Positions 1,571-57,744 of a DNA stretch of 64,000 bases are shown here, in pieces (within the stretch, counting starts at the first letter, position 1; every line of letters begins with the position of its first letter). The notes below the pieces were generated by a model. The model was not told the DNA's origin and ran no database searches. It worked only from the letters and a program-made list of their open reading frames with translations. The position numbers and the translations under genes are program-made. The DNA is taken from assembly GCF_038025025.1 (NCBI RefSeq), contig NW_027117338.1, forward strand, positions 2,852,001 through 2,916,000, in the 5' to 3' direction. The DNA comes from Phyllosticta citribraziliensis. Taxonomy: Eukaryota.

Positions 1571-4150
1571 CTTTCTCCACATGTTTTCTCGTCTGCGGCG
1601 CTGGATATGCATCATCATCATCATACATACATAGCATAGCGGCATAGCCTATATCCTTTCTTCTACTTCTTGTACAAAATTCAATCAATCACGCAACGCA
1701 GTCTTGCAAACTCCAGTCCGTACGTCCTTCTCTCGCCTACGTATGTTGCCCTTCAGGCCCTTCCCTCTCTTGGAAAAGTGTACATGGTGTGCTGATCTGA
1801 TGTGACATGATGTACATACAGGTAGTGCGTCTCGTCGCCCTTGCTCCTCCCGCTCCCCATCCTCCTCCTCGTCCCCTCTCCCAGCCCCCCGCCCTCGACT
1901 CTCTGCACGTTGACGCGAAAGAAGAAGCGTGCATCACATACTCCCTCGCTCGCCCCGCTCCCCACAGATACTTGCATATGGTGCGACGGCGACGGCGACG
2001 CAGACGGACGCTCCAACAGTCTACTGCTTGCGTCGTCGTGGTCTGCACCGTCGTCCCGGTGCTTTGATGCTTTGATTCCCAGCCGCCCCCAACGAATCAA
2101 CCCGCCACACAGAGAACACGAAGTAGATGAAGCTGTGCGCGTAGTCTACATACCTCTCGACGTAAACATCGCCGCTTCAGTCGTCGTCGTCGTCGTCGTC
2201 GTATGACAAACTCCGCACAGGTCGAGTCCATCGAGTCCAGCGCCCTGCTGTACTGCGCCGTACTGCGCTGTGCTTGCTGTGCCTCGACCGTTTTGTGTTT
2301 CGGTGTACAGTACAGGCAAACATACATGTACATGTGGTCGGGTGGCACGATTGATGTCTGTTCCCGCATCTGGGCGGTTGGACAAGGTGGGGACGGTGCG
2401 AGGAGGGGAGTTGATGTGGGTGGGAGATCTGGCTGTCCGTCTGTCTCTGTCGATGTGGAGAGGAACAGGTGGAAAGGAAAAGTTGGCACGGCTCGTTGAC
2501 AGATGTCGGCGACGATCCAACAAACGACGGACAGAAAGACAGACAGCATCCCAGCCACCTACCTACCTAACCTGCCTACCTCTCTACTCTCCATCAATCA
2601 CCCCACACATCCCCATCCCCTTCCCCTCAACCCTCCCCTCCTCCCCTTTGCCACCCGCACAGCCCGACCAAACCCTCCCCTGACCATCACCACAACCCAC
2701 AACCCAAAAGCCGTCGCGTCGTGTGGCGGCGTGTCGTCGTCGTCCACGCCAAGCCCAAAGCTAAGCGGCCGAGCAGCGGCCCTGCCCGCAGCCCGTCCGA
2801 AACACGGTCCCCTGAACCTTAATCTCGCGTGCTGCGTCAAGTCGAGTCATGTCTTCGTTTGCTTGGTGTGGCTGGTGATTGGCCGAGGGCGCGCCGATGG
2901 GTGCGGGACGGCGTGCGGGAGAGACGCAGGGAACATGGGGGAGGAGAAGAGGGTGGTGGTGGGATGAGCAGGGGATGGGGAGATGTTGGTTGAGGGTAAG
3001 GGCGTGGGGTTTGGTTGAGGAGCGGAGATGGGAGATGAAGACATGAGAGACGAGAGAGGGGTGTTGGGGAGGGATGTGATGGAGGCTGGGTAGTAAAGGC
3101 CGTGGTAGTTGCTTCTGCCACCACGAACGGTGTACCTGACAGGAAGGTCGCAACAGAGCGTGTGATCAAAACTCGCAAGAAAAACCAAGCCGGCATCGTC
3201 GTCGCATCTGCCGCACGTCCAGATCGCGCCCAGCAGACGAGATTGGCGCTCCCCGTGCGGACGACCCTGCGCAATGGCTCCAGATTGGCGATTGACATCC
3301 CAATGTCCGAGTCATGGTCTTTGCGAAGACGCGGGTGAGACGTGCGGATGGGGCGAGAGATGAACGAATATCGTCCGGTTGCTTTTTGTGATGAGGATGG
3401 GGTGTGCAGGTGTTGTGCCTGCCCCTTTTGCGGGGCGGCCAGTGAAGGCGCTTAGTTGATGGGAAATGGGAGATGATGCACTGTTTTCTTGGGGGATGGA
3501 TGCTTGGGGATGTGTCGATGTCAAGGCCGTGCCGAGGTGTTTGCAATGCAGGTTCATGAGGTGCCAACTATGAAGTCGACGTGGGAGATGAGAGTTTGGT
3601 GTTGAATGTAGTGGACTGTTGCATCTGTGACTGGCCTTAGATTGGCGTTCTTGACAAAGCGTAGGGACATTGATATCAGTGACTAAGGTAGACTTCAGGA
3701 AATACAGTGCAGTCTTCTGGATATGATGAATGAGATGGCAGTCAAGTCCTGGCCGCAGTGTTGCGCCCGCGACCCAAAAGAGCTAGCGCAGGCGCGTCGT
3801 TAGCGCCGCTCGCTTAGGGCACGTGCCACCTGCAGCCTCTACTTAAGGCCGGCGGGCCCCCCTCCCCTCCGCTTCTTTTCTTCTTCATCCAGGTGCTCGG
3901 GCATTACGCGTATCAGTGAGGATTCGTCCGAGATCGCGTTTTTGCTAGTTGAAAACTACAACTAATGACCGCTTTTGTTGGTCTTCGGATCGGCAAGGAA
4001 TCTTTGGAACTCTGCTCTTGGCCTTGACCGGCCAGCCCGCTTTTCTTCGTCGTGCGTATTCGCCTTGCGCGGGTCCTCGGAGAAGATGCGTCCAACTTTG
4101 CTCACTGCGACCAAGGCTCTTTGCTGGAGTCCGTCTCGCCTGCCGCCACC

Positions 4151-5298
4151 ATGACTGGCACCGTTCTCATCACTGGCGGTCTGCTGCTTGCTCGCTGTCT
4201 TTGTCGTGATGGGCTGACCTCCGCCAGGCACTGGTCTGCTGGGTCGCCAGGTTGTCCGCGAATTTGTGTCGCGAGGCTGGAAGGCTGTTGGGACTGGATT
4301 GACGCGCGCCGACGCGTCGTCTACCCTCAAGCTCGATCTGCTCAACCACGGCGACGTGGAGAAGACGCTGGACGACATCAGGTGAGTGCTTCGCCATGCC
4401 AACGTCCGTGTCCTTGCTGATGGCGTCAAAGACCCGATGTCATCGTTCATTGTACGTGCTATTATTCCGAGTCTAGCGCTCCCATTCACAGGCCCCAGGT
4501 GCTGCAAACCGTTTCCCAGACTCTTGTTCCTCCAACCCTGACGGAGCGCGCGCCATCAATGTCGACGCCCCGGCCACACTGGCCCGTCTGGCAAGCCGCC
4601 GCAACATTTTTCTGCTCTACATAAGCACCGACTACGTCTTCCCCGGTACGCCTGGCGAGGCCCCATACGCGCCCGCCCATCCGCCCGATCCTCCAAACAT
4701 GTACGGCTTGACAAAGTGGGAGGGCGAAAAGGCGGTGCTGGAGGCCGCCGGTACAACAGAACAGGACGTGAGGCCTCTTTCTGCGGTGCTTCGCGTGCCT
4801 GTGCTCTACGGCAAGGCGCTGCGGCCTTCAGAATCGGCCGTCAACGTCCTGGTTGAGCAGATTCAAAAGGCCGCTGCGCTGGAGCCGTCCGAGCCCCGCA
4901 TCGCCATGGACCACTACGCCCAGCGCTACCCGACAAACACGTCCCAGGTCGCCCGCGTCTGCTTCGACATTTGCGAGCTGTACACGGCAAGGAGACAGCC
5001 TGCCGCCCAGTGGGGACAAGCAAAGCTCCCTGAGATATTGCACTTTTCGTCCGAGGACAAGATGACCAAGTACGAGATTTGTCAGGTCTTGGGGGATATT
5101 CTGGGCTTGCCGCTCGACGGTCTCGAGCCTTACACGCCGTCGCAGGAGCAGCTGGCGAGGGAAGAGAGTGAGGGCAACACGAAGAGGCCTTATGACTGCC
5201 ACTTGGACACGGCAGAGACCAAGGCTTTGGGAATTGATGTGAGCACCGTCAATTTCAGAAATTGGTGGCGGAAGGAACTTGGTGCGTATCGGCACTGA
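4151..5298 (+). CDS. RmlD-like extended SDR / methionine adenosyltransferase II beta subunit-like protein
   Basis: Exons 4151-4178, 4228-4381, 4432-4451, 4499-5298 give MTGTVLITGGTGLLG (GxxGxxG), PDVIVHCAANRFPD, ISTDYVF, YGLTK (YxxxK), LRVPVLYG, RYPT, RPYDCHL. Confidence 0.85.
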
Positions 5299-13064: not shown

Positions 13065-15787
13065 ATGTTCAAACCCCTCATGGAGACGGGTTCATTCCTG
13101 AGGGAGCACGTCTTCAGCCACATCCCCAGGCGCATCCGCTTCCGCTGGCCGCGCTTCAATTTTATAGCTCTACACTGTACGTCTGCCACCGCCCGCATTC
13201 CTCAGGACAACTCTTCTGACACCTCACTCTCTAGACCTTTACCTCGTAATATGGACCCTCATCGGCTCCATCCTGATATACCCCGCCGGTCGCCTCGATT
13301 ATGTCGACGCCCTCTTCTTCGCCAGCGGCTCCGCGACGCAAAGCGGTCTCAACACCATCGACGTCAACAAGCTGCTATTCTACCAGCAGCTGGTTCTCAT
13401 GTTGGTGGCTTGCGTCTGCAACCCCATCTTCATCAACACCTTTGTCGTCTTTGTCCGCCTCTACTGGTTCGAGAAGCGCTTCCAGGGAATCGTCGCCGAG
13501 GCACGCAGCAAGAACCGCAACACGCGGTCCCGGACAAAGAGCGAGGCTATAGATGATAGGGATATTGGGCGAGAGGAGCAGGGCGTCAATGGCCGAATGA
13601 TTACGGTCATGCGCGACGCCGAGGGCCACGCCAAAGGCAGGAAGTGCAACGTCGATGGCGAGATGGATGAGAAGGACGCGTCCGCCCTGCAAACGGCAAA
13701 TCCGTCGTCGTCGAACAGTGGAAGTGGTCGCACAGCTACCCCTGAGGACAAGACTTCGTCTCCCGAAGGTCTGGCCGAGGACAGCACCGTAGACACAACC
13801 AACGACGAAAAGCATCCGATCAATCAGCCATTCACTCGAGACATCAAGTTTGCCGACGATGTCAACCCACCTGGCCCGCAAAAACGCATGTCCGACTATT
13901 CCAACTCGGATCGTATACCCGCCCGCCGGACGGCTGAGCAACATATAGCATTCGTTGAAAATCAGCGCAGGCCCAAGACGAAGGGCAGGCTATATATTCC
14001 CGGCCCGCGAGATTTCGACCGCGGCGACAAGCCGAAACGCGTGGATGACGAGGAGGGCAACCTGGCACTTGGGCCGGAGATGACCAATGACTCGGGTGCG
14101 CGAGGGAAGGACCAGGACGAAGCCCGACAACCCGCTGACAAGGTCGATCCCGATGTCGTTGGCAACGATGAGCACACCGGTTGGAGGAGACACTTCCATT
14201 TCAACGAGGAAGAAGATGGCTTCCGTGGGAGAGTGGGCTCTAGAGTTGCCAACATCCGGCGCCGAATCACCAATCAGAACGACGACGATGAACCTCCCAG
14301 CGGCCTGCGATCGAAGAACAGGACTTCGACGTTCAAGAGCTTCATGACGACAAGGAGTCAAGACCGCACGAACGATCCCATGCCATATCTCAGTTGGACG
14401 CCGACGATTGGTCGCAACTCGGCTTTCGTCGACTTGACGGAAGAGCAGAGGGAGGAGCTTGGTGGCATTGAGTACCGCTCCTTGAAGACATTGGCATTCA
14501 TTTTGGTGCTTTACTTCGTTGGGTTTCATCTGCTCGGCATGGTCTGTCTGCTGCCATGGATCATAAGGTCGAGCTACAATGGCAACGTCTTGAGGCCGGT
14601 CAGTGTCAACGCAACCTGGTGGTAAGTTTGATCATGACCGTTCGTTGAATGAGCGCTAACACTCTACAGGGGCTTTTTTACGCCGGCTTCCCTATTCAAC
14701 GATCTCGGCTTCACATTGACCCCGGACTCGATGATCTCGTTCCAGGATGCCGTTTTTCCCTTGCTGCTCGGAAGCTTCCTGATCATTATCGGCAATACTG
14801 GCTTCCCGTGCATGCTCCGCTTCGTCATTTGGATCGCCGAGAAGTTGGTTCCGTATGGCAGTAGTGTCTGGGAGGAATTGAGGTTTCTCCTGGATCACCC
14901 AAGACGGTGCTTCACGCTCCTCTTTCCATCGGGTGCCACGTGGTGGCTGTTTTGGGTTCTTGTGCTACTCAACGGCATTGACCTGATCTTCTTCATCATC
15001 CTCGACATTCACGACGACACGGTGACGGCACTCCCAGCTGGATATCGAGTCTTGGACGGTCTCTTCCAAGCCGCATCGACGCGCACTGCTGGGTTTGCGG
15101 TGGTCAACATTGCCGAGTTACATCCTGCGGTTCAAGTTTCGTACTTGATCATGATGTACATTTCCGTCTTCCCCATCGCCATTTCCATGCGCCGCACCAA
15201 CGTCTACGAAGAAAAGTCACTGGGCATCTGGGCAGGGGACAGCACCGAGGTTGAAGACGGGGACCAAATGCAGAGCTACGTCGGAACGCATTTCAGGCGA
15301 CAGCTCTCCTTCGATCTGTGGTACATCTTCCTGGGCTTCTTCTTCATCGCCATCATCGAAGGGTCACGGCTCGAAAATACCAACGACTACAGCTTCACGC
15401 TCTTCAGCGTACTCTTCGAAATCGTGTCGGCCTACGGCACCGTCGGCCTCTCGCTCGGCTACCCCAACGTCAACACGTCCTTCTCGGCCCAGTTCCGCCC
15501 CCTCTCCAAACTCATCATCATCGCCATGCAGATCCGCGGCCGCCACCGTGGCCTGCCATACGCACTCGACCGCGCCATCCTGCTGCCGTCGGAGAACCTG
15601 CATCGCAAAGAGGCCGAAGACGCCAGCCGCCGCGCCCGCCGCAACTCGGGCTTCTCGGAGCGCGAAAACAGCCGCGACGGCGACGGGCGCAACTTGTCTG
15701 GCGGCGGCGAGGGCCTCACGGGCGTGCGCACGGCGTCGACGCGCAGACCCAGCCAGGCGACGACGGCAAAGGACTGGATTGGCGGTA

Positions 15788-15820
<33 letters not shown>

Positions 15821-15987
15821 GTGGTGCTGTGAGTGGCTCCGCTGTCGACGACGAGATCACACCGGCGCCGCATCAGTGGCTTGGACGCAAGCCGCGCACG
15901 GGGAGTGCGGCGGGGCTGACGAAGTTGCTGTCGGGGGCGCTGAGCGCGGGACCTACGATGGGGCGGGAGCGCGAGAAGCATGCGTAG
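13065..15987 (+). CDS. TRK1: TRK/HKT family potassium transporter
   Basis: Introns 13177-13234 and 14622-14669. Four MPM filter motifs (ATQSGLNT, FNDLGF, TRTAGF, YGTVGLSLG), PYLSWTPTIGRNS, ELGGIEYRSLK, RGRHRGLPYALDRAILLP. Confidence 0.93.
15790..15825 (+). repeat. (GGC)9(GGT)3 coding repeat giving Gly12 in the TRK C-tail
   Basis: Read directly; in frame with the TRK ORF. Confidence 0.95.
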
Positions 15988-41493: not shown

Positions 41494-42248
41494 GGGCGGC
41501 GGATGGACTGGACTCTCAGGCTGCGATGGTCATGGCCGGTTGCTGGAGGAAGAGAGTTGATGGTCAGGATACGGTGGCATGGGCAAGGTAAGCTGAGGCA
41601 AGGTTAGGTCCGTCGGCAGGTCGCCCGCGACAGAGTAGTGGAGCTCGGTGGTGCAGCAGCGGAACAGCAGCCTTTTTGGACCTCGACGCCATGGATTGCT
41701 TGCATCGCATCATCAAACAAACACCTAACCCTATCTTCACGCAAAATACGTATTCTGACACGCGCCACGTCGCGTTGGTTCGCCTGCACCTGACTAACGC
41801 GCAACCACCTGAATCAAGACGTTCAACATTTGCAAGATGAGATGCCTAGGTCCTGTAAAATGCCACAGAATGCCAACGTCTCGCAGTCCAAAAAGGTAGC
41901 CGTTCCTCTGTACCCACAAATGCAACCGTGTCTGCGTCACGCTGATGACAACGCAGAGAAGTAAATAAAAAATGATCCAAGTGAGCGACGGCCCAAGTCC
42001 CGTCAACGCCACGCTGTAAAATCCAAAACACCGTCCCAAGAGTTCCATGTATCAAGAAATGCAAATCAGAAAATGCCAAAAATGGAATACGATGCCCTGT
42101 CCCAGGCGGCGCGGTGGGGCAAAACCTCTTCAGACTTTTTGAAAACCACAACCGAAACCTAGGCACGCTTCCCCGCTGCCTGAATGCTCCCGGCCGACCA
42201 GGGAACATGCCGTGCACCGTCCGCCGAGAGCAACCCGCCTGCCCCTCG

Positions 42249-43741: not shown

Positions 43742-46245
43742 AGTGTTGGCGTAGGGCTGAGGAGGTGCTCCGCCGCGTGGGTGAGGCTGTGGAGGTGAGG
43801 TGGAGAATGTAGCGGAGGAGCAGCGCTGAGCTGATGGTGAGTTGGAGTAGTCGGGCGAGGGCGAAACGGAGTGGGCGTCAGCGCAACAAAGAGGACGGCG
43901 GATCCCCCTGCGGAGGAGTGTCGAGGAAATAGCGGGGGAGGGCACCTCAGGCCCCAGCGTCGCCTCACCAACGGCACAGGATATATTAGGTATCCGGCGG
44001 GCTATCACGACAGTGCCGGGGCCGGGCCTGCTCGCGGACCACAGGCAGAACACAGGGAGCAGAGCGGGGAACTTAAGGTTGAGGAGCAGCAGGAGGAGCA
44101 TGCAGAGCGACGAGGACGGGGACGGGGACGGTGACGAGACGAGACGAGACGAGACGAGACGAGCCGGAGACGGACACGGCGGAGGTGGAACAGAGACAGC
44201 CATACATACATGTAGCTATGACTTCAACATGAGCTCTTGTTGGCTCGTCGTCTGCTTCTGTTCCTCTCTGCCTCTCGCTCTCCCGGAAACTCAAGCCCAC
44301 CCGCCCGCCTGGTTCCTTGGCAGATCTGGTCATCGCTTATCTCGACGTGGATAAGCCAACTTTCCTAGGTTTCCTTGCTTGTTTTACCGGTAGCCAGTAG
44401 CCACCACTCACTATCTCTCTTCACCCATCCGACTGCTCCGCAAACGGCTTCCTTTTTACGAGAATCTCTTCAACACTGCGTCAAAGGCGGTGTCCATCGC
44501 GACCCACCCACTGCGCCGCTGCTTCGGACGAACCGTGGGGGCTTCAACCTCACCTCACCTCACTCCAGCCAGCCAAGCTAACCTAACCAGCTCTCCCCTA
44601 GCCACCTCGCCGCTCTCTGCCTCGCACTGCCGCTAATGCGCATCGCCATCTGTATTGCATCGTAGCTGCGTCGGGGTTGACGTTGACAGCCATCCGAGCT
44701 TCTTGCCTCTTCTCACCGTCTCGTTGCCGAAAATGCTGACGTGCTGCGGCCCAGCCTCTCTGCGGCTCAGCCATGCGCTTCCGAACATCTGCCTCCCAAT
44801 CATCGTCCCTACCCTCTCCCTGGCCAGACGTTGGCGTATGCCCGACAAGTCCGGATCCCTTCCTCTGAATTCCCGCGGCCACAGCTCGGCCCATCCTGCC
44901 TTCTCCTATCACGGCACTTGTCGCTTGTCCGCCTGCCTACTGGAGAGGATACCTACCTACGCCAGCATGCATGCAGACTGCAGACTGTCGTCTCGGTGCT
45001 GCCCATCGTCCATAGTACGGCGCCCCATCGATTTGAATCATGTCCTAGACGAAAGACATGCTAGCCACATGTAGCACTCCATCTCCAGCTTGTCTCCACT
45101 CGAAGCTTCTGCAACCCTTCCATCGGCGCTTCCCGCTTGCCCCAATCGCCTCTGATCTTCGTCTTCTTCCAAGACCCCAATCACTGCGTCCAGGGGGACA
45201 ATAATCATCGAAGCCATGGCATGACATGCGTCTGTCTCGCTCATTTCGCCATTTCCACGGCGCGAGATTATAGCCAGTGCTCAGACCTTGGTTCGGGCTC
45301 CTTCCCGCGTCGTCTGCCTCTTTCGACCTAACATGACCTCCCTTTGCTGCGGCGACCATCTCGCTTCTTGTCGCCCGCATTCTGACCTCATCATGTTGGT
45401 TCCAGTCAGGGCCGGCCCATGTCCAGTGACCCATGCGCCGTCGTTGACACCAGCCAATCAAAAATAGAATCACCCCTTGATACCAGCTGCAAGAAGAGCG
45501 CGCAATGTGCTTGCTCACTTCTTCCCTGAGGGGCCTTTGTCCAACACGTAGTCATCGGTAGGCTTGAAACATTTTCAATAATTTCAACCGAGTTCAAGAG
45601 GAATCTGAAGATCAGACAATTGACAGATGTGGTTGGTCGGAAGAGTGGACAGGCATTCTCTGGACCCCTTGCCTTTGTTGAGGCTCTTGTCCAGTGCGGA
45701 GTGCAGGCGGTGAGTGGCCGTTGGTGACCTGAATCCATCGACCGGGAATGCATCCGCACCGATGGAATGGCCGAGGCTTTGCCGCCGGAGCGGGAGAACC
45801 ATAGTCCGCCGTCGGCGACGATGCCTCCGGCTCCGCTGAACAGCAGCAGCAGCAGCAGCAGCAGCCCAGCTCTGACGTCCGTGTTGTCTCCCGTTTCGCA
45901 GACGCGGTCTGACTTCGAGTTTGCGCAAATAGACCTCTGTGTCCCGACCTGCGCGCGGCGCTTGCAACCCCATCAACCATCTGTCAGCCCTTGCCGACCC
46001 TTCCCCAGCCAGCCGTCAAGCTGTGTCGGACTTTGCTGCCCTCTCAAATTCTACCGCCGACCCACGATCCAGCAAAACAACAACGAACGACGCGCATCAC
46101 CGCCCCAGTCGCGTCTCCACGCATCAGCCGCTCTATCCTCGTCCACAATCCCGCTTGAACAGCGGTACCACCTCGTCCACTTGACAAAGCGACGCGGACA
46201 CGGCCGCCTTTTATTTGGAGACCCGGGTCTCGCCATTTCGCCACA

Positions 46246-49200
46246 ATGTCCAAACGCGGCGCTGATATACAGTTGTCCAAGGATGGTGGATTTCAAGGAG
46301 ACGGCGCAAATCAACAGACAGCGGATGAGAAGCCCCAGCGGGCCACGGCAGCGCAGTTGGCGAACAGAAAGTTAGTTGCCGTTTCCTTGTCTGACAGGCA
46401 GGGGTCTCGACGTCACCGCACTTTTGTGGTCTTGTCGTCGAACCAGCCTGTTGACATCTGAAATGCTATGATTGACTGACACATGATAGACTCAAGCCTT
46501 TGAAAGGCCGCACAAGGCCGGCTGGTTCTGTAGGTTCAGCCTCTCGCTACAGCGCCTCTCTTGCTGACCACCCTCTCTCAGACGTCTAGCAGTTTTCCCG
46601 GCGCATCCCAACCAGCTCCAGGTGGTGTAGGAAGCAATCCCTTCTCTAGCTCTGCCTTCACTCCTGCACCTGCACCTGCACCTGCACCTGCGAACAACGG
46701 ATTCAGCTTCAGCTTCGGCGGCCCGCCCTCTACTGCGTTCAATGCCCCTGCAAACGACGCAATGGACACTTCTGTGTCGCCTCAAAAACAACCCCCGCCT
46801 GCATCCAACAATCTCTTTGCGCAGTCGGCTTCAAGTGCCATGCCCTCATCTGGCTCCAACCTCTTTGCATCCTTCAGCAAACCAGACTCGGGGAACATGT
46901 TCAGCCAATCAACTTCTAGCAGCAACCCGTTCCAATTTGGTGCCACCACGTCCACTGCACCTCCAGCAAGTTCAAGTTCTCAGCCTGCGCAAAATCTCTT
47001 TGCTTCTGCAACACAGAATAACCAGGCAAGCTCGACACCTCAATCCTCTTCATCGCCGTTCAATTTTGGAGGCTTTTCGCAGGGTCAGAACAAGACAACT
47101 CCAGAGCCTGCCAACAATGCGCCTCCTCAATCTACTTTCAACTTCAATTTTGGTGCAAACACAGCCAGTGCATCTCAACCCGCGCCTGCTTTCTCCTTTG
47201 GGGCTCCGGCTCCGGCGAAGGATGCTCAGGAAGCCTCCAGCGCGCTTACGACTTCATCTGCACCTAGCACTTCTCAGCCAGCCCCAGCATTTTCGTTCAA
47301 CGCGCCTAGCACGACCAAGGACACTCCAGCTCCACTGGAAGCCCCCAAACCCTTCTCTTCAAGCACATCCTCGCAGCCTACGAGCGCCTTTACATTCGGT
47401 GCCACCAACGCGTCCAAAGATAGCGCCCCTAGCAGCTCCCCATTCTCTTTTGGAGCTCCATCCTCTTCGAAGCCGGCAGCCTCATCCGCGGCCGACCAGC
47501 CCAGCAGCAGTATCTCTCAACAAGCAAGCAGCTCAAACTTGTTCGCCGCCAAGCCCAACTTTCCCCCGTCCTCGCAAAAAAGCGGCAGCGACTCGAACGC
47601 GACTTCGAGTGCACCGTCGAATCCATTCACCTTTGCGACGAGCACCTCGACAGGATCGGCAACCGCGTTCTCGCCCGCAACTCCAGCCAAGACCACTCAG
47701 CCAACACCCTCCTTGTTTGGGTCTACGACGCCTGCACCATCGTTTACTCCGACGAAGGAACCGGACGCTCAGCAAGAAATCGGGAACAATGACAAGGCTG
47801 CGAGCAAAATCTCTACATCAGGCTCAAATTTATTCAAGCCCTCTGCTTCCACAACTGGCACTTCCACGGCGAGCAACTTGTTCGGAAGCATGACCCCTAA
47901 GCCGTCTGGTGGAGCAAACAACCTCTTTTCTTCCCCGAAGCCGGAAAACACCCCTGCCCAGTCCAACATGGAGAAAAGTGTATCCACGGCGAACCCTAGC
48001 AAGTCAGCGTTTGGACAATCCAGTAGCGGCAACATCTTTGCGGCCGCTGCGGCATCTAAGCCTTCAAACGAGCAATCCGAAGCTCCGGTGGTCAAACCTG
48101 TTCAGCTTGCTCAGCCTGCGCCTTCAAATGGCTCTGGCGAACATGGATCTTCTCCAACTTTCTCAAACAAATGGGAAGCAGACGTGTATAAGGACCCTGA
48201 GGAAGCATGGATCGAATTGAATCGATGGTGGAAGAACATGGTTGCAGAAGCGGACATTGGGCACGACTACTGGCGTCTCTGCGACTTCTACTTGGAGCAG
48301 CGTCTGAAAGTTCGGAAGCGCTTGGGTATCGCGAGGAGTGACGATCTGTTGGAGCCGGGTGATTACCCTATTAAGAGTCACTCGCATGAAAAGCCTCGAC
48401 AGAATGGGAGCGCTGCGGCTACTTCGCCAAAGAAACAACAGCAGGCTGCCATTCAGGACACGCCTCCTGCGGGTGCTGCTGGTTCCCAGACGGCAAACAT
48501 TTTCAGCAGCATCGTCAACAAGTCCTCGCAGTCTTCACCGCAAACCGCAGCGAATGGCTCTCAGTCGCCCGCGGCTGGTGCCTCGACCTCGAATGCGTTT
48601 GGTGCCTCGACCTCGAGTGCGTTTGGCGCCTCTACCTCCAAGACTCCTGTGAAAGCGGCGGCCCCCTTGGGCGACTCAACTTCGACAACCCCAGCTGGCA
48701 GTCCTGTGAAGCGAGATCTCTTTTCAGCGCAGACGCCATCCAAGTCTGGTCCGTCGGGCCAGCTCGGCAACACTGAAACTCCCAAGTTGTTTGATACAGG
48801 AGTTGCGAAGAGGAAATCTGGGGCCATCTCTGCTGATGATGCAGGCGACGTCACCCAGGAAAGCGCGCAGGAAAAGCGACAAAAGACAGATACGAATGGC
48901 GGGCTTCAGCCCCCTAGCTCGGGATTGTTTGGTGCTCCGTCACGCTCTCCAACTCCCGGTTCATCCGCGAACAACGGTTCTGTGCTGAACAGCGGAGCAG
49001 CCTCGCCAAACCCGAACAACCCCTTCAGCCATTTGTCCCAAGACGAAAGCACGGGCAGGGATGACGACGATGACGAAGACGAGGATGGCGAAGATGACGA
49101 TGAAGAAGCGGGTAGCAGCACTCCGACTCAGGAGCCCAAGACCGGTGCCGGTTTGTTCGGACGCATCACCAAGGACGACAGTGGCAAGTCAGTGTTTGGA

Positions 49201-49983
49201 ACGCCACCTGCGAAGAATGAAGCTGCGGGTACCAACATTTTCGGCTTTGCGCAGACTGGTCCTGTTAACAAGACCTGGAGTGGTGATTCTGAATCCCCTA
49301 TCAAGTTCAGCACCCCCCAGCCGGCTTCGTCGGCCACCGATGCCAAGCCATTCAACCCATTTGCAAGTTTGACAAAGACCACTGCCGCTCCATCCTCCGG
49401 AAGCGCATCCACACCATTCAAATTCAACCCTACTCCTGCCACGACCTCGGACAGTGGATCCGTGCTCGGCACCGCCTCGGGGTCACGAGCCGCCACACCC
49501 GGCCTCCCTTCGACTGGAGCCTCGGAAGCGGAAGACGACGAGGCGCCCGCCCCCGTTGATACCGAGTCGATCAAGCTCCGCACAGCCCTCACAGACGAGG
49601 ACAAATCGACCTACGACATCTTGTTCGACACGGACGACAAGGCAGTCTCGACGATGCGCCTCGTCGACAAGACGGAAGAGGAGCTTGCGGCGGACCCCAA
49701 GAAGCAGCCCAAGAAGTGGGTCGTGACGAACAAGGGGCCGCTCCGCGTCCTCAAGCACAAGGAGACGGGCGCCGGGAGCATCCTGCTCAAGGCCGAGCCC
49801 ATGGGCCGCGCCGTCATCAACTCGCGCCTGCAGGCCAACCTCATCTACAAGCGCGCCAAGCCCAAATTCGCCGCGCTGTCGCTGCCGCTCGAGGCCGGCA
49901 AGCTGGTCACCGTCTACGTCAAGTTTGAGGACGACGCTGATTGCACCAAGTTTGTCGACGTGTGCGAGTCGAACAAGTCGTGA
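46246..49983 (+). CDS. NUP2: Nucleoporin Nup2/Nup50-like (N-terminal importin-alpha-binding motif, FG/FxF repeats, C-terminal Ran-binding domain)
   Basis: Exons 46246-46370, 46490-46529, 46582-49983. MSKRGADIQLS...QRATAAQLANRKLK, many FSFG/NLF/NPF repeats, RanBD-like W...GPLRVLKHKETG...GRAVIN. Confidence 0.85.
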
Positions 49984-50846
49984 TTCGGCACCGCCGGCAT
50001 ACAGCATGCATGGAAAGAAAATTGTTGTTTTGTACTCTCGGGTTTCTCATCTAAAAGTTTTGGGGGATGGGATGAGATGGAGGGGGGGCGCCGCGCTCTC
50101 TCTGTCCTTCTCGTCTCTGCGTCACATTCGGTTTCCTATGCCTCCATCCTGGCGTTTTCGGCAAAGAGCAGAGCAGAGCAGAGCGAGCGTTGTTGTTGTC
50201 GTTGTCGTCGTTGACACGCGAAGAGGCTTCTCGCGTTTGGGATTGTCCTTGGCTCTTCCTTCTTGTGTCTACCTTTTTTCCTTTCTTATTGCCCTCCTTG
50301 ATGTTGGTAGGGTAGGCTGGATAGTGTAGGTAGAGAAGCGAGTTGGAAGAGTGGGTCGGTCTCCCAACACACGCCATGCGTCTGGCAACAGTCTCTGTCT
50401 TTTGTTTATGAGAGACGTTGGTCGTGGACTGACTGACGCCTGCGTGTCGTGATTTCCCCCACTGCACCAACCGCACCAGCTGTCGACTTGATCGTTTTGG
50501 GCTTGGTGCGTGGCGACTGAGCGAGTGAGCGAGTGAGAGCGAATGAGCGTATTTGGAGAGTTTGAGAGAAAGCGAGAGGAGAGGGGGCCAGACTGCGTTC
50601 CCGGTAAGGCAGCGAGCTGGTCTAATACAAACACTTCATCATATATATGTAGTATTGGAGCGTGGAGACCACACCAAGCACCCAAGGAAAAACAAAAGTC
50701 GAATTCACGGGTGGACGGAAGGTGGTTTAAACCCGGAAGATTCTTGAATACTTTCAATTGCGTCGCTCGCTTGCTGTGGCTATAACAATCGTCGCGTATT
50801 CTTTGAGCATCGTAGCTGGCTGGCTAAACACGACCTATGAACCTCC

Positions 50847-51209
50847 TGCTATACAGCAAGCAACCAACCAGGCCAGCCAGCGGCCAACCTACCAACGCAA
50901 CGCAACGCAAGCTCCGCCGCCCCTCGACACTCACGACGCAGGCCAGACTCAGCGTCACTCACTCACCACCCCCCACCTACCCGTCCAGCCACGGGTTAAG
51001 TGGTAGCAATACTCCTCCTTCCTGAGAACGAGTATTGCTACCACCTAACGCGTGAATGGACGGACAGTGCATGAGGTGCTGAGTGATGCTGTGCGTGTGT
51101 AGGGCTTAGTGGTGTATGTCGGGGGACGGCGGAGCTGGCGTCTGTCGGTGGGTGGGAGGGGCGGGCGCGTTGGGTATTTATGTGGTCATCTGGTTGAGTG
51201 GTTATAGTA
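50847..51209. repeat. Long imperfect inverted repeat (fold-back), candidate hairpin ncRNA
   Basis: 51000-51014 is the exact reverse complement of 51030-51044. Nested complementary blocks extend outward (see findings). Confidence 0.85.
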
Positions 51210-51374
51210 GCTTGTGCCCAGGTGGACTGCTGCTCGCTCGCTCGCCTCACTTTTTCGCCGTGGAATACTATCTCCGCTGCTACCACCCTCGACCAAGGCT
51301 GTGGTTGTGGTTGTGGCTGGCTGGCTGGCTGGCTGGCTGGCCAGATAAACAGACCTGGTGGATGATGTATGGAT

Positions 51375-51407
<33 letters not shown>
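51375..51407. repeat. (GCG)11 microsatellite
   Basis: Read directly from the sequence. Confidence 0.95.
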
Positions 51408-51634
51408 TTCTTAGTGCCAGCCAGCCAGCCCACGCCCAACGCCCCAACGCCCCAAGAAATTTCCTGATACGGTTTCAGAATTCTGTTGGAAGGTTGCGGG
51501 TGCTACATGCTGCCGGTGGCTGCTGGTGTTTTGAAGATCGACGTGCGCGCGCGCGCGCGCACGAAGCTTGACCTTGCTCTAGCAGTTCGCACTGTCCTGC
51601 CCTGCCCTGCCCTGCCCTGTCCTGTCTCGTCGGT

Positions 51635-51667
<33 letters not shown>

Positions 51668-53731
51668 CAGCTGCTGCACTGCGTCCTCGATTGGCTGCTC
51701 GGATTAGATGATGGAGAAACTGAGAGACTGAGAAAATGAGAAACCGCAGCGAGCAAGCAAGTCCCATTTGCAGGCGATGACCCAGATCAGAACCATACCT
51801 CCATGTCCCTTGCCATCCATGGTACCAGGCTCCTGATGCGGTGCGTGAGGTGTGCCGTGCTGCGCAATCCACATCCGCGTGGACAAGGCACCAGGCAGGG
51901 CAGGTGGGCGAAGTCGCACGCGCGTCGTCCCTCCCGTCTTGTCTTACATGGTACACGTCAGGTACGCGGGGCATCCGTACTCGCCTTTCCTTTCTGTGTT
52001 GTCTGCTCGCTCGCTCGCTTGCTGATGTAGGTCTCTTGTACCTATTTCCAGGCAGAATGTCTAAACGCGCGACAAAGGCACGCTGAGGCGGTGCTATGAT
52101 GTGCCGGACATGCCGGCCGGCCAGCAAAGGCAACGTGAGGCGTGAGCGCAACCAGCCCCAACCTACATAAGTAGACAGACAGTACGCAGCGTACGCACCG
52201 CAAGGCGAGGCGCGCATGCCAGCGGCCGTTTCCCGCACCGCAGCCAAGCAGCGACCATGCGATATGACGCGACGCGTCAGGGCGACAGACGGGCAAGCGG
52301 CGCAGTTCCACGCGCGACGGGCTGGGGTAAGAAGCGAGGTGAAGTGAGGAAGAAGAGGAGGCGGAGGCGGAGGACGGGAGGACCGAGGTCAAGACGAGGC
52401 GAGGTGAGGCGAGGTGAGGCGCATGATACAGGCAACCGACCACAGCCACTCATGGTATCATCGAATTCATCTGATCTGATATGCGGCCACGATATGCCTG
52501 GGGTGTCTTCATAGCGCGCTGCTTTCTTTCTCTTCTGCTCACTCGCTTGCTTCTTCAGCGCATGAGACCTCGAATTCCTCGTGCAGTTGCCTGGATGGGT
52601 GTGCCCGCCCGCCCGTCTTCTCTCCATCCATCCATCAACTTGCCAAACAAGGCTGACCATCAGCCTCAAGCAGTCTTGAACAAGCGAGGGCTTGGGTGTA
52701 TTTGCGCGAGTCGTCTGGTCTTGGTGTTTACGTTTGCGTGCTTGCTTGACAGTTGTCTCCTACCTGCACGCACCTTACGCGGGGCAGACGCGGTACTGGT
52801 ACCTGAGCAAGTTGGGCAGGAGCAAGACTCTTCCTCCCGTGTGCTTCTGCTTCGCTGTACAATGTTTTTCCAACCCAACCAACACCAACGCCGAATACGC
52901 ACAATGTAAACAAACACCCTTGAAGCCTCGTCTCGGTTAGCTCTTGGATGGAAAGAAAGCGGTGTCAAGTGATGTGAAATTATTTGCTTCCGTTCTCTCT
53001 AGCAGCAAGCAAGCTGCGACTGCCCCGTCACCCACCCCCGTCACCCCTGTGGCAGGCAGGCAGCATCCTCTGATACCATTGCCTCCTCGCTCGCTCTGAA
53101 AATCAAAAAAGCTGAAAAACCCCCTCCCATAAAACAAAACGCCGCGGTCTATGTTGAGGACGCCGTTCAACGATGATGATGATGATGCATGGCCGATGTA
53201 GGGAAAACAACAAGCAAAAAAGAGAAAAGGACTGCTCCTGCTGTCGACGACTGGACGGCTAGGCTTGGTGATACACGTGCGGGCAACGGGCACTATTAGA
53301 AGGTGTGATGATGATGAGGCGCTCCATCGCGGAAGAAAAAAGCAGCACACGAGAACTCTGTCATCCGTCCGGGTATTGTACCACGCGCCATCGGTGGTCA
53401 TCATCTGCTCTGGGAAACCAAAATGTGGAAAGAAAAAAGAATGCCAGCCTCCCCCGTGTTTCTCCATGCCACCCCCGCGCCCGCCGACCCCCTCGGAATT
53501 GGAAACAGTAACAACGCCTTGTAAATGTCGAAAAAAGAGTCATGTTGCGGCAGGTAGATGTGAGAGGCAGGTCGAGGTTAAGAATGTCTTTCTCAAACAG
53601 GCAACTTGGCTGGCCGCTCAGAACGCCCAGAATGTGCTCGGATTAACTCGTGTGGAAATTTCCTGGTATCATAGATTGGCTGGTGGTGATGTGGTGTGGT
53701 GTGGTGTGGGCCGTGAAAAAATTTCCCCTCG

Positions 53732-54541
53732 TCATGCCGACGCCGATGGCGGGGCGGGCGGGTGGTTTTGGTGATAGATGGTCGGTAATGAAAATTGGGA
53801 GACTTGGGCGCCGCTGCTAGCTGCGTAGTCGGTCCTCTCCAAGTACTTTTCCCAGTCGGCATCCATCATGACGTTGGGGGCACCCTGCTCGCGGCGTGCG
53901 GCAGCCTCGATGAGGCGTTGGTTGAGAGGAATGCCGATGCTTTCGATTTCCTCGTCGCTGTCGTCTTCCATGTCTTCGTCTTCAGCCTCGGTGGCCTGTT
54001 GCTGTTGTTGTGCGAGCAGTGCTGCCTGTTGCTGCGCAATCCGCCCTGCCGGTGCCGTGTCGCGGTTGTTCCGTACGTCCTCGATTTCAACCTCGATGTC
54101 CGTCTTGACCTTGATTTCCGAATTCTTGCGGGCGTTGCGCCTGGGCTGGCCCTGCCACGGACCAATTTCGTTGCCGGTGGTGTCGAGCACCTTGATGCCC
54201 TCGTCCCGCTCGTAGCGTTGCCTTGCCCATAGCGTGCCTTCCCAGCGACACAGGCTTGCAATCTCCGACTCGGTCAGACGCAAGTCGTCAAAGGCCCTGA
54301 AGAGACGGGCATGGTGAGGAAAGCGAGCCAGGCGTTTGCGGTGGGGACCGTGGGAGTAGTTGAGGCCGGGATAGCGTGCCTCGATTGTGTCTAGGGAACC
54401 GTAGAATGTGGCCGTCTCGATGCGAACCTCGCCGACGAGATTTTTGGAGAGATGGGCCGAGAAGGAGGAAGGGTCCTCTGGCCGTGGGTGAGGGAAGAGG
54501 TGGTGGTAGACCAGGACTGATATGGGTTGTTTTCTGTGCAT
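53732..54541 (-). CDS. Hypothetical protein with globular-looking N-terminal domain and Gln/acidic tail
   Basis: 269-aa ORF with good start context. Aromatic-rich N-half (YHHLFP, FYG, EARYPGLNY, WEGTLWARQRYE). No family recognised; the 3' end could be spliced. Confidence 0.75.
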   Translation of the reverse strand: MHRKQPISVLVYHHLFPHPRPEDPSSFSAHLSKNLVGEVRIETATFYGSLDTIEARYPGLNYSHGPHRKRLARFPHHARLFRAFDDLRLTESEIASLCRWEGTLWARQRYERDEGIKVLDTTGNEIGPWQGQPRRNARKNSEIKVKTDIEVEIEDVRNNRDTAPAGRIAQQQAALLAQQQQQATEAEDEDMEDDSDEEIESIGIPLNQRLIEAAARREQGAPNVMMDADWEKYLERTDYAASSGAQVSQFSLPTIYHQNHPPAPPSASA

Positions 54542-55386
54542 GATGGCGAGGGTGGAAGCAGAGAGCAGAGAGCAGAGTGAAGGGGAGAGGACAGGAGGCG
54601 GAGAGTAGAGGAGGAAGAGGGCGAGGAGTCGGAAGAGGAGAGAGTCGGAGTAGAGTGGTGGCGGCAGAATGGGAAGAAGGTTCCGGCGGAGGAGTCGGTG
54701 TGGCGGCGCAGCGCGTGAGGCAGGCGCGGGAACGGTGTATATAATGTAGCAGGAAGAAGCTCGGGGCGGAAATTACAGGAAGAGCAGTAGCGAATGGGGG
54801 GTTGGGCGAAAGGAGGTCATGTCGAAGCGTCCAGCGCACACGATTGCGGTGAGGATGATGCTGGCCGACTCACCTGTCGCCCCGTCAGCAAGCCACCGCC
54901 CGGCCTTGCTGCGACATGCGACATGGCAACCAGCGCACCGCCGTGATTCGGTCCGCCGCATGAACCGCCCGCCAGACGCCAGCGGCAGAAGACGCAATCT
55001 CCCCTCAAGGACTCCAGGCCAGGCCGCATGGAGTAAGGAAGAGGAACGAAAATGGAAAATGCAGCGATGGGCAGAGGGCGGTCTGGTCTGGTTGGTTTGG
55101 ACGGCTCGGATGGGACTGGAGTGTTTGGAACTGGAGTAGGGAGGACTACCGCCGCACCGTACTGTACTCAGGTCTCGGCGGCAGAGGCAGAGGCAGACGA
55201 CGGCATCGGGCCCGCGCGGCTCCTGTTCGCTGGCGGGTTGCCCGAGTCACGTGCGCCCTCTCAACCCCGTCCACCTCCGCTCCGACCCCGGCCCGTCTCT
55301 GCACCGACCTGGACCACCAACTGGACGGTACCTGGACGCCCGCAGCGGCTGGCGTACCATCAACCACCACCGACAACTCATTCATC

Positions 55387-57744
55387 ATGTCCACCTTCGA
55401 TGGCCTCGTCCACGGTCAGTCTCCCTCTCTCCTTCCTTCGTCCGCGCATCCAACCAACGTTCCCGCTGCGCAGAATTCCCCCACATCGCCATCGACCACT
55501 TTCGGACTTCTGTGCGCCCCAGCCCCCCGCTGGCCTGCTTCTTGAGCCATGTGCACTCTGATCACCTGCACGGCCTCGAGTCTCTGCGCTCGCCCTTTGT
55601 CTACTGCTCACCTGCCACCAGACAAGTATGTCATCATCACCACGAAACACCCTGGTCCCTCTCTCTGCTTTTCCCTGCATCTTTGTCGACTTTCCCCTGT
55701 CGCCCTGCGTTTCGCCACCACTTCATCTGCAGAAAATCTGCGAGCCGAACCTTCGTCATCACCCGCCGCCACAAGCCTTGGCTCGACATGTTTGGGATCC
55801 AGCCCTCCATGACCACTCTCCTCGTCTCACACGCCCCACTCGCATGTCTCAGCGGGCTCGAGCTTGATCACACCTTTGAATGTGAATTAAACCAAGTCCA
55901 ACCGTTGAACAATTGCACTTGCACATCTCCAGCGCTAGCCCAGCATCCACCTGCTGTCGCTGCAACCATGTCTACTCACCTTGCAGCAGATTCTACTCCG
56001 TCTGGTCAAGTATCCCCATCGCATCAACTTTGCCCGAGGTATCCTCGAGACGCGCCAGCAGACATACAAACACTTGAACAAGCTCCTCAAAACCGTTCCT
56101 TTAGAGACGCCCACGGTCATCGAGCTCTCGGCCGGAAATGAGATCCAAGTCACCCTGTTCGACGCCAACCACTGCGTTGGCGCCGTCATGTTTCTCATCC
56201 AAGGTCACGGAAAAGCCATCTTGTACACGGGCGACGTTCGAGCCGAACCTTGGTGGGTTGACTCAATTGTGCAAAATCCAATCTTGATTCCCTACACCCT
56301 GGGCAACAAGCGGCTGGACAAGATTTATCTGGACACGACCTTTGCTGGCACATCATGGATGTACCGAGAATTCCCCACCAAGGCCGACGGTCTGCAGGAA
56401 CTATTGGACAAGGTGTCCAAATACCCGCCGGACACGATATTCCACTTCAAGGCGTGGACGTTTGGGTACGAAAATGTGTGGATAGCACTGGCAGCGCACT
56501 TGGACACGCCGATACATGTCGATGACTACCGCTGGGGCCTATACAAATCGCTCGGGACCATCGACGGTACCCTACCGCAAGCGACCGAAGCCTCGCCCCT
56601 CGTTGGCTTCCACCTGGGCAACCACAAGAGAGACGGCTGTTTGACCCCCGACCCGAACGGCCGCCTCCACAGCTGTGAGCGAGGCGCCGGTTGTCCCACG
56701 GTCGACGCCGCTACCAACGACGACAACGTGGTTGTGCGCATTTTCCCCATCGTCAAGCGGCTGCCCGACGGCGCGGAAGTGGCTGAGCTAGGCCTCGGGG
56801 GCGGAAAAGGCGACCTGGACCTGGCCCACGAGCTGGAAGCCCCTGACGACCCGTCTATTTTGGGCCGGTTGAAAGACTTTCTCGCCAGCGAAATGGAAGA
56901 CCATGCTCTCGTGGCCCGGGTGATGGAGAGGTTCAGCAATGCACTGAAGAAGGGTAATGGCTGCCTCCGCCTTGACGCGGGGCTGGACGTTCTCCAGGGC
57001 GAGACGTCGCTCGACGGGATGCCGCTGCAGAGGCTGGTCGACATCTTGGCGCGCCTGGCAACCGACGACGAGGAGCAACCGTCAGGGGAGACCAGCGACT
57101 CGACGGCCGCGGCGGTCCAAACCGACCTCCCTCGCGTAATCACCTTTCCATATGCCCGCCACGCCTCGTACCTGGAGCTCTGCGATCTGGTAAAGGCCTT
57201 CAGACCCAAAGATCTCTACCCCTGCACCGTAGACCCCGCGACGTGGTCTTTGCAGGTCAGCATGAGACAATTGTTCGGCCACCTGTGCAGTGCCGACGTG
57301 TTTGCCCACGACGCCTACATGCTCGCTCTGCCAGAGGTGCGCAAGCGCTTGCGCGCAGCCGAGGAGGCGGATCTGGAGACGCAGCGGACGGATGGGAGTC
57401 CATCTGTTGTTCATCGTGACCATGACCCAGATACGGCCATGGCCCTCGACAACGAGAACAATAATGCCGCTAGTCAGCAGCCTGCTCACCACCCCAGCAC
57501 AACAAAACCCTCTTTTCTGACCTCCCAAACCCCCTCACCAACCGCCCAAGCTCACCCGCCATCATCGTCCGCCGCGCCAAGTAGTCTCGCCATCTCTGAG
57601 TTGTCGGAACCCAGCATCAGCGAGTGGGCCGCGCGCGCCGCTCGGCAGCAAGACGGCTTCACGTGGACGGATTTTGGCGGGCTGGTTAGTTCGCGACGGC
57701 GACGACGTGGTGGGGAGGATGGGGAGGGCGAGGAGGAGCTGTGA
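55387..57744 (+). CDS. Artemis/SNM1 (DCLRE1C-like) metallo-beta-lactamase/beta-CASP nuclease
   Basis: Exons 55387-55414, ~55474-55625, 55990-57744 give MSTFDGLVHEFP, FLSHVHSDHLHGL, DANHCVGAVMF, YTGDVR, YLDTTF, TFGYE, PYARHASY. Confidence 0.9.

Follow-up and report, generated by a model that had tools for sequence, protein, structure and literature searches.

Fungal microRNA-like RNAs (milRNAs), first described in Neurospora, and the long inverted-repeat loci of Drosophila and plants, which give rise to hairpin RNAs (hpRNAs) and IR-siRNAs, are the described systems that come closest to the locus analysed here; an inverted duplication has also served as a model for the birth of miRNA genes. Fungal hairpin small-RNA loci have been re-analysed across 41 species, with 666 of 1727 published mi/milRNA loci confirmed (PMC9757828). 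According to the text of that study available to us, the hairpin has to be a fold-back that lacks secondary stems and leaves at most 20 bases unpaired in any loop of the duplex, and the reads mapped on it have to be of about 19-25 nt, to reach at least 0.5 reads per million and to derive to at least 80% from one strand; the top tier of loci additionally requires an intergenic origin and conservation in at least two genomes (PMC9757828). In the same portion of the study the well-supported fungal hairpins are short, and the natural occurrence and action of long hairpin RNAs in fungi are presented as a subject that still needs exploration. A further class of fungal small RNAs, the disiRNAs of Neurospora crassa, is Dicer-independent and tied to sense/antisense overlap, with small RNAs arising from both strands, as stated in the available part of PMC3764098.

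The fold-back under study lies in a stretch of 64 kb of genomic DNA, referred to here as the window, in which intron sizes and the other genes fit a filamentous ascomycete. A preliminary description of this DNA had delimited it as a fold-back of about 360 nt (50847-51209, 363 nt) and had seen in it an unannotated small-RNA gene. The fold-back is real for its inner 240-270 nt or so, and not for the full 363 nt. Its parts are as follows:

50888..51014, unstranded: left arm, C/A-rich (+ strand), from gapped alignment and BLAST
51015..51029, unstranded: spacer of 15 nt between the perfect 15-mers
51030..51159, unstranded: right arm, G/T-rich (+ strand)
50981..51063, unstranded: core hairpin of 83 nt with pre-miRNA-like geometry, its arms of 39 nt being 85% complementary

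When 50888-51014 is aligned, with gaps, to the reverse complement of 51030-51159, 99 of the 122 aligned columns match (81%) and the alignment resolves into ten collinear ungapped blocks with short indels between them; BLAST of the left against the right side returns an E value of 1.9e-12 for 50905-51014 / 51141-51030. On recount, the inner pairings came out just as first described, with 15 of 15 Watson-Crick (WC) pairs between 51000-51014 and 51030-51044, 30 of 34 between 50981-51014 and 51030-51063, 11 WC plus one GU among the 12 positions of 50950-50961 and 51080-51091, and 22 WC of 25 between 50905-50929 and 51117-51141. The counts for the two outermost blocks are also right (7 of 7 for 50865-50871 / 51190-51196; 6 WC plus one GU of 7 for 50847-50853 / 51203-51209), but these blocks are at chance level and do not belong to the element: the outer flanks share a single exact inverted 7-mer, where shuffles predict 0.83. 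Because the outer 7-mers are chance matches, the element measures about 240-270 nt and not 363, extending over 50888-51159 at most and over 50905-51141 securely. Beyond 50888 and 51159, the only sequences that match each other are the complementary microsatellites (GCCA)n and (TGGC)n, which lie at unequal distances from the centre and were not counted as part of the element.

The 363-nt interval folds at -190.9 kcal/mol as + RNA and at -188.6 kcal/mol as - RNA. Comparison with shuffled sequences, which the preliminary description had proposed as a check, places this fold far beyond chance (z -8.77 and -9.03, respectively, with 0 of 100 shuffles as good). To preserve the contrast in composition between the arms, C/A-rich on the left and G/T-rich on the right, each was also shuffled by itself; the z-score is then -8.9 and the best of 200 shuffles reaches -152.1 kcal/mol. 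Trimming the sequence to 50885-51162 gives z-scores of -10.08 (+) and -11.75 (-). By GC-corrected folding energy, the fold-back ranks 1 among 911 sliding segments of 280 nt along the 64 kb (residual z -3.8), and its two parts are the two longest among the seven inverted pairs (at least 24 nt, within 600 nt) of the whole window.

On either strand the RNA is predicted to form a single unbranched stem with one hairpin loop, the largest internal loop being of 7 nt (+) or 6 nt (-); this is the long imperfect hairpin of the earlier account, free of secondary stems. The predicted + strand stem has 104 pairs, including 3 G:U, and a 15-bp tip; that of the - strand has 109 pairs, including 13 G:U, and an uninterrupted tip of 20 bp, and the - RNA is the more stable by 9.4 kcal/mol (folds of 50885-51162). 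Wobble pairs had been said to favour each strand in different places, whereas their distribution, 13 G:U against 3, is unbalanced. The spacer contributes 3-4 extra pairs in the predicted folds, which reduces the terminal loop to 6 nt in the + RNA and 5 nt in the - RNA. For the core 50981-51063, the predicted fold comprises 33 pairs (-52.6 kcal/mol, longest helix 15 bp) as + RNA and 36 pairs (-58.1 kcal/mol, longest helix 20 bp) as - RNA.

As had been recognised from the beginning, the hairpin is flanked by the 3' ends of two convergent genes, whose stop codons at 49983 (+) and 53732 (-) bound an interval of 3.75 kb. RNA evidence on this region comes from two runs of the same organism, X1 and X2, which belong to two studies and were placed on the window as contigs; it therefore concerns cover and bridging, and not strand, ends, level or single-molecule linkage. 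The contigs of X1 present three GT..AG joints, skipping 46371-46489, 46530-46581 and 55414-55472, and such spliced contigs show that X1 contains RNA. The features of the region are:

45873..50578, + strand: upstream gene, one X1 RNA contig lying on 45873-46370 and 46725-50578
48536..51146, unstranded: X2 contig of 2611 nt containing upstream CDS, stop codon and hairpin core, with one letter different from the window, at 48930
50624..50660, unstranded: A/T-rich patch, some 330 nt short of the hairpin and just past the X1 gene contig, whose end is at 50578
51300..51680, unstranded: microsatellite cluster by the right arm, with (TGGC)7, (GCG)11, (GCCA)3.8, (GC)8, (CTGCC)6.6 and (TGC)14
52960..54771, - strand: downstream convergent gene, RNA contig with a CDS at 53732-54541 (269 aa)

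The first two of the X1 joints are two short introns of the upstream gene, and the placement of its contig passes over a repeat at 46655-46724. The long + ORF of this gene (1140 aa) stops at 49983, so that the hairpin follows about 0.9-1.2 kb past the stop codon. The name NUP2, under which the gene had been introduced, is unconfirmed, since its only Pfam match is a sub-threshold one to Nucleoporin_FG, at 17.2 bits where 32.2 are required, and neither a RanBD nor a Nup50 domain was found by Pfam in the 1140-aa ORF or in the 202-aa ORF upstream (45767-46372). No Pfam family is recognised in the downstream 269-aa protein, whose look-alikes in an Atlas search are only clusters of hypothetical proteins from Ascomycota, and a PDB sequence search gave no relative for either flanking protein. 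We take the A/T-rich patch 50624-50660 to be a plausible candidate for the main poly(A) region of the upstream gene, judging from fungal poly(A) signals; if so, the hairpin would lie about 330 nt downstream of it, in read-through RNA. On the other side of the hairpin, the 380 nt of 51300-51680 are unusually dense in microsatellites, which include (TGTGGT)2.8 and (CCCAACGC)2.6 besides those listed above, and the (TGGC)n and (GCCA)n tracts form perfect 15-nt inverted repeats (51315-51341 against 51416-51430).

The interval between the two genes had been called a gene-free gap, which is correct with respect to coding but not to RNA, as contigs cover it. It has no coding signal: Pfam recognises no family in any of the six gap ORFs examined (153-269 aa), and GC content differs between codon positions by 0.03-0.17 there, compared with 0.19-0.45 where the flanking genes are clearly coding. 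A tRNA scan of the interval found none, and Rfam (E up to 1) returned nothing at gathering score, its best match being Plastid-psbA-3 with 30.1 and 26.6 bits against 48.4. The core also gives a sub-threshold match to mir-92 (20.2 bits against 47). Both Rfam matches were set aside as identities for the core, being below gathering score, and are taken as generic hairpin matches.

X1 has depth in 30 of 30 bins of 45000-57000. Its contig of the upstream gene, of depth 698, ends at 50578; depth then is 141-167 over 50614-51816, a segment that includes the hairpin, 278-308 over 51817-53019, and 2284-5087 over the downstream gene, to be compared with 20-28 over the upstream promoter region (45000-45801). 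This minimum of 20-28 bounds any uniform DNA background, and the hairpin region is therefore transcribed above background. X2 is considered RNA only by guess: no spliced joint was seen in it, and its contig depths, varying from 3 to 257 within 12 kb, fit RNA. The X2 contig 48536-51146 is unbranched and, inside the hairpin, agrees with the window letter for letter; the X2 bins without cover in the gap (51817-52217) were not taken as evidence. Lack of transcription had been named as an observation that would speak against a small-RNA gene, and what is found instead is RNA contigs over the hairpin in two runs from two studies. However, the X2 contig is continuous with the upstream CDS and X1 depth covers the whole gap, so that the hairpin looks embedded in a longer 3' or read-through RNA and not like the separate gene unit originally envisaged.

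Throughout the non-coding interval 49984-53731, X1 depth is present in every bin and is higher at both ends, beside the genes. This covered interval may consist of long 3' UTRs, read-through RNA or long non-coding RNA. Read-through from the - strand gene, which has much deeper cover, is as possible a source of hairpin RNA as the upstream gene, and would agree with the better fold of the - strand. At its own 3' side, the downstream gene is covered by an X2 contig that starts exactly at 52960, about 770 nt past the stop codon, preceded by 27 loose letters that look to us like sequencing adapter; the position suggests a sharp RNA or fragment end, perhaps the 3' end of this gene. Both RNA runs also contain a joint of the "opposite strands" kind between 49054 and 53949, with many loose ends at 49062-49102. 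The sites 49054-49102 and 53949 encode acidic Asp/Glu runs (GAC/GAA/GAT repeats) and share at most 9 identical bases; the joints probably arose in assembly, as cross-links through further transcripts with acidic runs, and not from a rearrangement.

In evolutionary terms, the pattern of divergence between the arms bears on the origin of the element. Identity had been thought to be highest near the loop and to decay outward, and this had been used as an argument against a young MITE. Counted by block, matches amount to 32/38 beside the loop and 27/33 over 50905-50937, and to 13/16 for the three blocks farthest out; identity is about even along the arms, around 80%, without a convincing gradient, and the argument built on the gradient fails statistically. 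In simulations at 81% identity, 65% of alignments are expected to contain a perfect run of at least 15 at some point, and only the position of the perfect 15-mer, exactly at the loop, is somewhat out of the ordinary (P 0.043, post hoc test). The arms differ by 23 mismatches, 13 of transversion type, which pair on neither strand, and 10 of transition type. Of the mismatches, 8 are wobble-compatible in the - RNA but 2 in the + RNA, a split which, at a two-sided binomial P of about 0.11, amounts to a hint and no result. Judged from sequence, the mismatch spectrum is devoid of any excess of structure-preserving changes and carries no sign of selection for pairing. The even divergence of about 19%, together with the indels, leans towards arms that have decayed neutrally, as would an old inverted duplication left to itself. 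This evidence needs to be qualified, since the stems of real miRNA and hpRNA loci also have mismatches and bulges, and 81% arm identity is compatible with selection too. The better - strand fold and the G:U excess could, for their part, come from selection or from transcription-linked mutation on one strand.

Within the 64 kb there is neither a second copy of the fold-back nor a complementary target for it, all other BLAST matches being chance matches of 9-25 nt. The exact core hairpin had 0 matches among metagenome contigs, in collections with few fungal genomes, and a search for relatives through the C-terminal 300 aa of the upstream protein, in collections of the same kind, retrieved 597 stretches by pattern, of which 0 were confirmed. 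A 91-aa frame over the left arm gave no homologue in a large protein collection containing few fungi. Runs X6 and X8, which are labelled as other organisms, have nothing on the hairpin. They do contain short zero-difference contigs, of depth around 3, at 53161-53412, 45771-45956 and 50000-50212; these look like carry-over of abundant RNA or DNA, or like the organism being present in the samples, and not like conservation. The single truly diverged piece is that of X8 at 54155-54279, in the downstream CDS, with 17 other letters.

How, then, does this locus compare with the systems described? It shares with fungal milRNA loci an unbranched imperfect stem-loop situated in non-coding transcribed DNA, and its core has a short loop and a stem of 33-36 bp. 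It departs from them in that the fold-back, with about 105 pairs, is far longer than the well-supported hairpins in the available text of PMC9757828 and appears embedded in a longer 3' or read-through RNA. Examined as a milRNA locus, the hairpin has a valid fold (largest loop 6-7 nt), a transcribed precursor and a non-CDS position without Rfam or tRNA match, its transposon status being judged within the window only. The element thus resembles a possible milRNA precursor by structural and contextual rules, a resemblance that does not extend to class membership. With hpRNA loci it has in common arms of more than 100 nt, a presumed origin by inverted duplication and a long imperfect dsRNA that would yield heterogeneous siRNAs; what sets it apart is that neither a gene from which the segment was duplicated nor a target was found in the window. 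The stem as a whole would nonetheless find a better analogy in the hpRNA loci of flies and plants than in milRNA loci. The setting of the element, a gene-rich region with two convergent genes and RNA contigs between them, recalls that of disiRNA loci (PMC3764098), although the contigs are strandless here and, in the available part of that report, disiRNA loci do not depend on a hairpin.

The explanation that we prefer, and to which we would assign about an even chance of being correct, is that an old local inverted duplication is contained in read-through or extended 3' RNA, which would make the element a plausible Dicer substrate and a kind of "proto-hairpin" locus. A local inverted duplication of about 240-270 nt would have arisen between the convergent genes of a filamentous ascomycete, and the resulting hairpin would be transcribed within a longer RNA over the gap, namely RNA that extends or reads through past the 3' end of one or both genes. 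In such RNA a single stem of about 105 bp would form, with a perfect helix of 15-20 bp at its tip, and this stem would be a natural substrate for Dicer, provided that the usual RNAi enzymes are present in the fungus. Because the arms look neutrally decaying, any small RNAs produced would probably be heterogeneous by-products and not a selected, precisely processed milRNA. From the initial proposal of an unannotated small-RNA gene, a plausible precursor structure, non-coding and covered by RNA, is retained; the idea of a unit of its own is not supported, and the sequence leans to neutral decay. A more ambitious version, which we consider unlikely, would see here a natural long-hairpin RNA locus, born by inverted duplication within read-through RNA, whose predicted - strand form is diced into siRNA or milRNA-like RNAs acting in trans, or is cut in a way that ends read-through between the two genes.

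Opposed to the inverted duplication that we prefer is a milRNA or hairpin-RNA gene under selection, along the lines of the preliminary description, whose hairpin Dicer would process into defined small RNAs that load on Argonaute and regulate targets in trans. We regard this as somewhat unlikely, although the hairpin passes the structural criteria in the available text of PMC9757828 (no secondary stems, no loop above 20 unpaired bases), its 83-nt core has the short-loop geometry of the well-supported fungal loci reported there, it is positioned outside CDS, matches no Rfam family at gathering score and is overlaid by RNA contigs, and its - strand combines a 20-bp perfect apical helix with 13 G:U pairs. 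Confirmation of 666 out of 1727 reported loci, and the shortness of the well-supported ones in the text available, set a low prior for any candidate hairpin and a lower one for a fold-back of about 270 nt, and give the present candidate modest weight (PMC9757828). The mismatches, moreover, show no wobble enrichment, with 10 of transition against 13 of transversion type; no complementary target occurs within the 64 kb, and the collections searched, which hold few fungi, have yielded no conserved counterpart.

A size of about 270 nt is typical of MITEs. The element is, like MITEs and fold-back transposons, small, non-coding, intergenic and palindromic along its whole length, and a divergence of about 19% between arms with indels would fit an old insertion; the intergenic DNA around it is repeat-rich. 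That it is the relic of a non-autonomous transposon of this type, inserted in the intergenic region and decayed since, is nevertheless quite improbable, for the fold-back is single-copy in the 64-kb window, inspection of the sequence flanking 50888 and 51159 reveals no target-site duplication or direct repeat, and its termini are no better conserved than the centre (13/16 outermost against 32/38 loop-proximal). The last two features argue against a classical MITE, even if decay could hide both, and the passage of one unbranched X2 contig through the hairpin speaks weakly against near-identical expressed copies. Very improbable, in our estimate, is a role in RNA processing or fail-safe termination, in which an enzyme of RNase III type (Dicer or Rnt1/Pac1-like) would cut the stem co-transcriptionally, end the transcripts that run past the main poly(A) site and thereby limit convergent collision. 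We know of no such termination element described in filamentous ascomycetes. The arrangement would suit it, with convergent genes, X1 contigs across the whole gap, a hairpin situated about 330 nt past the A/T-rich patch near the end of the X1 gene contig, and an X2 contig ending at 51146, near the stem base on the right (51141-51159). Contig ends, however, differ from RNA ends, and X1 depth continues beyond the hairpin on both sides. Moreover, yeast Rnt1 sites consist of a stem with an AGNN tetraloop, whereas the 15-nt spacer here has a predicted apical loop of 5-6 nt and no such tetraloop.

Natural long hairpin RNAs are well known from flies and plants, and a transcribed hairpin of about 105 bp at a single locus, with a pre-miRNA-like tip, constitutes a clean test case for the origin of fungal small-RNA loci. 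It might further reveal if stems located past poly(A) sites shape 3' ends at convergent genes.

Elsewhere in the window there are two weaker inverted repeats, one at 2598-2993, with arms of 31 nt that are 77% complementary and 334 nt apart, and the other at 41657-41910, with arms of 30 nt, 80% complementarity and a separation of 194 nt. A cation transporter of TrkH type is split over two + ORFs, 13399-14622 and 14731-15984, likely because of an intron of about 100 nt.
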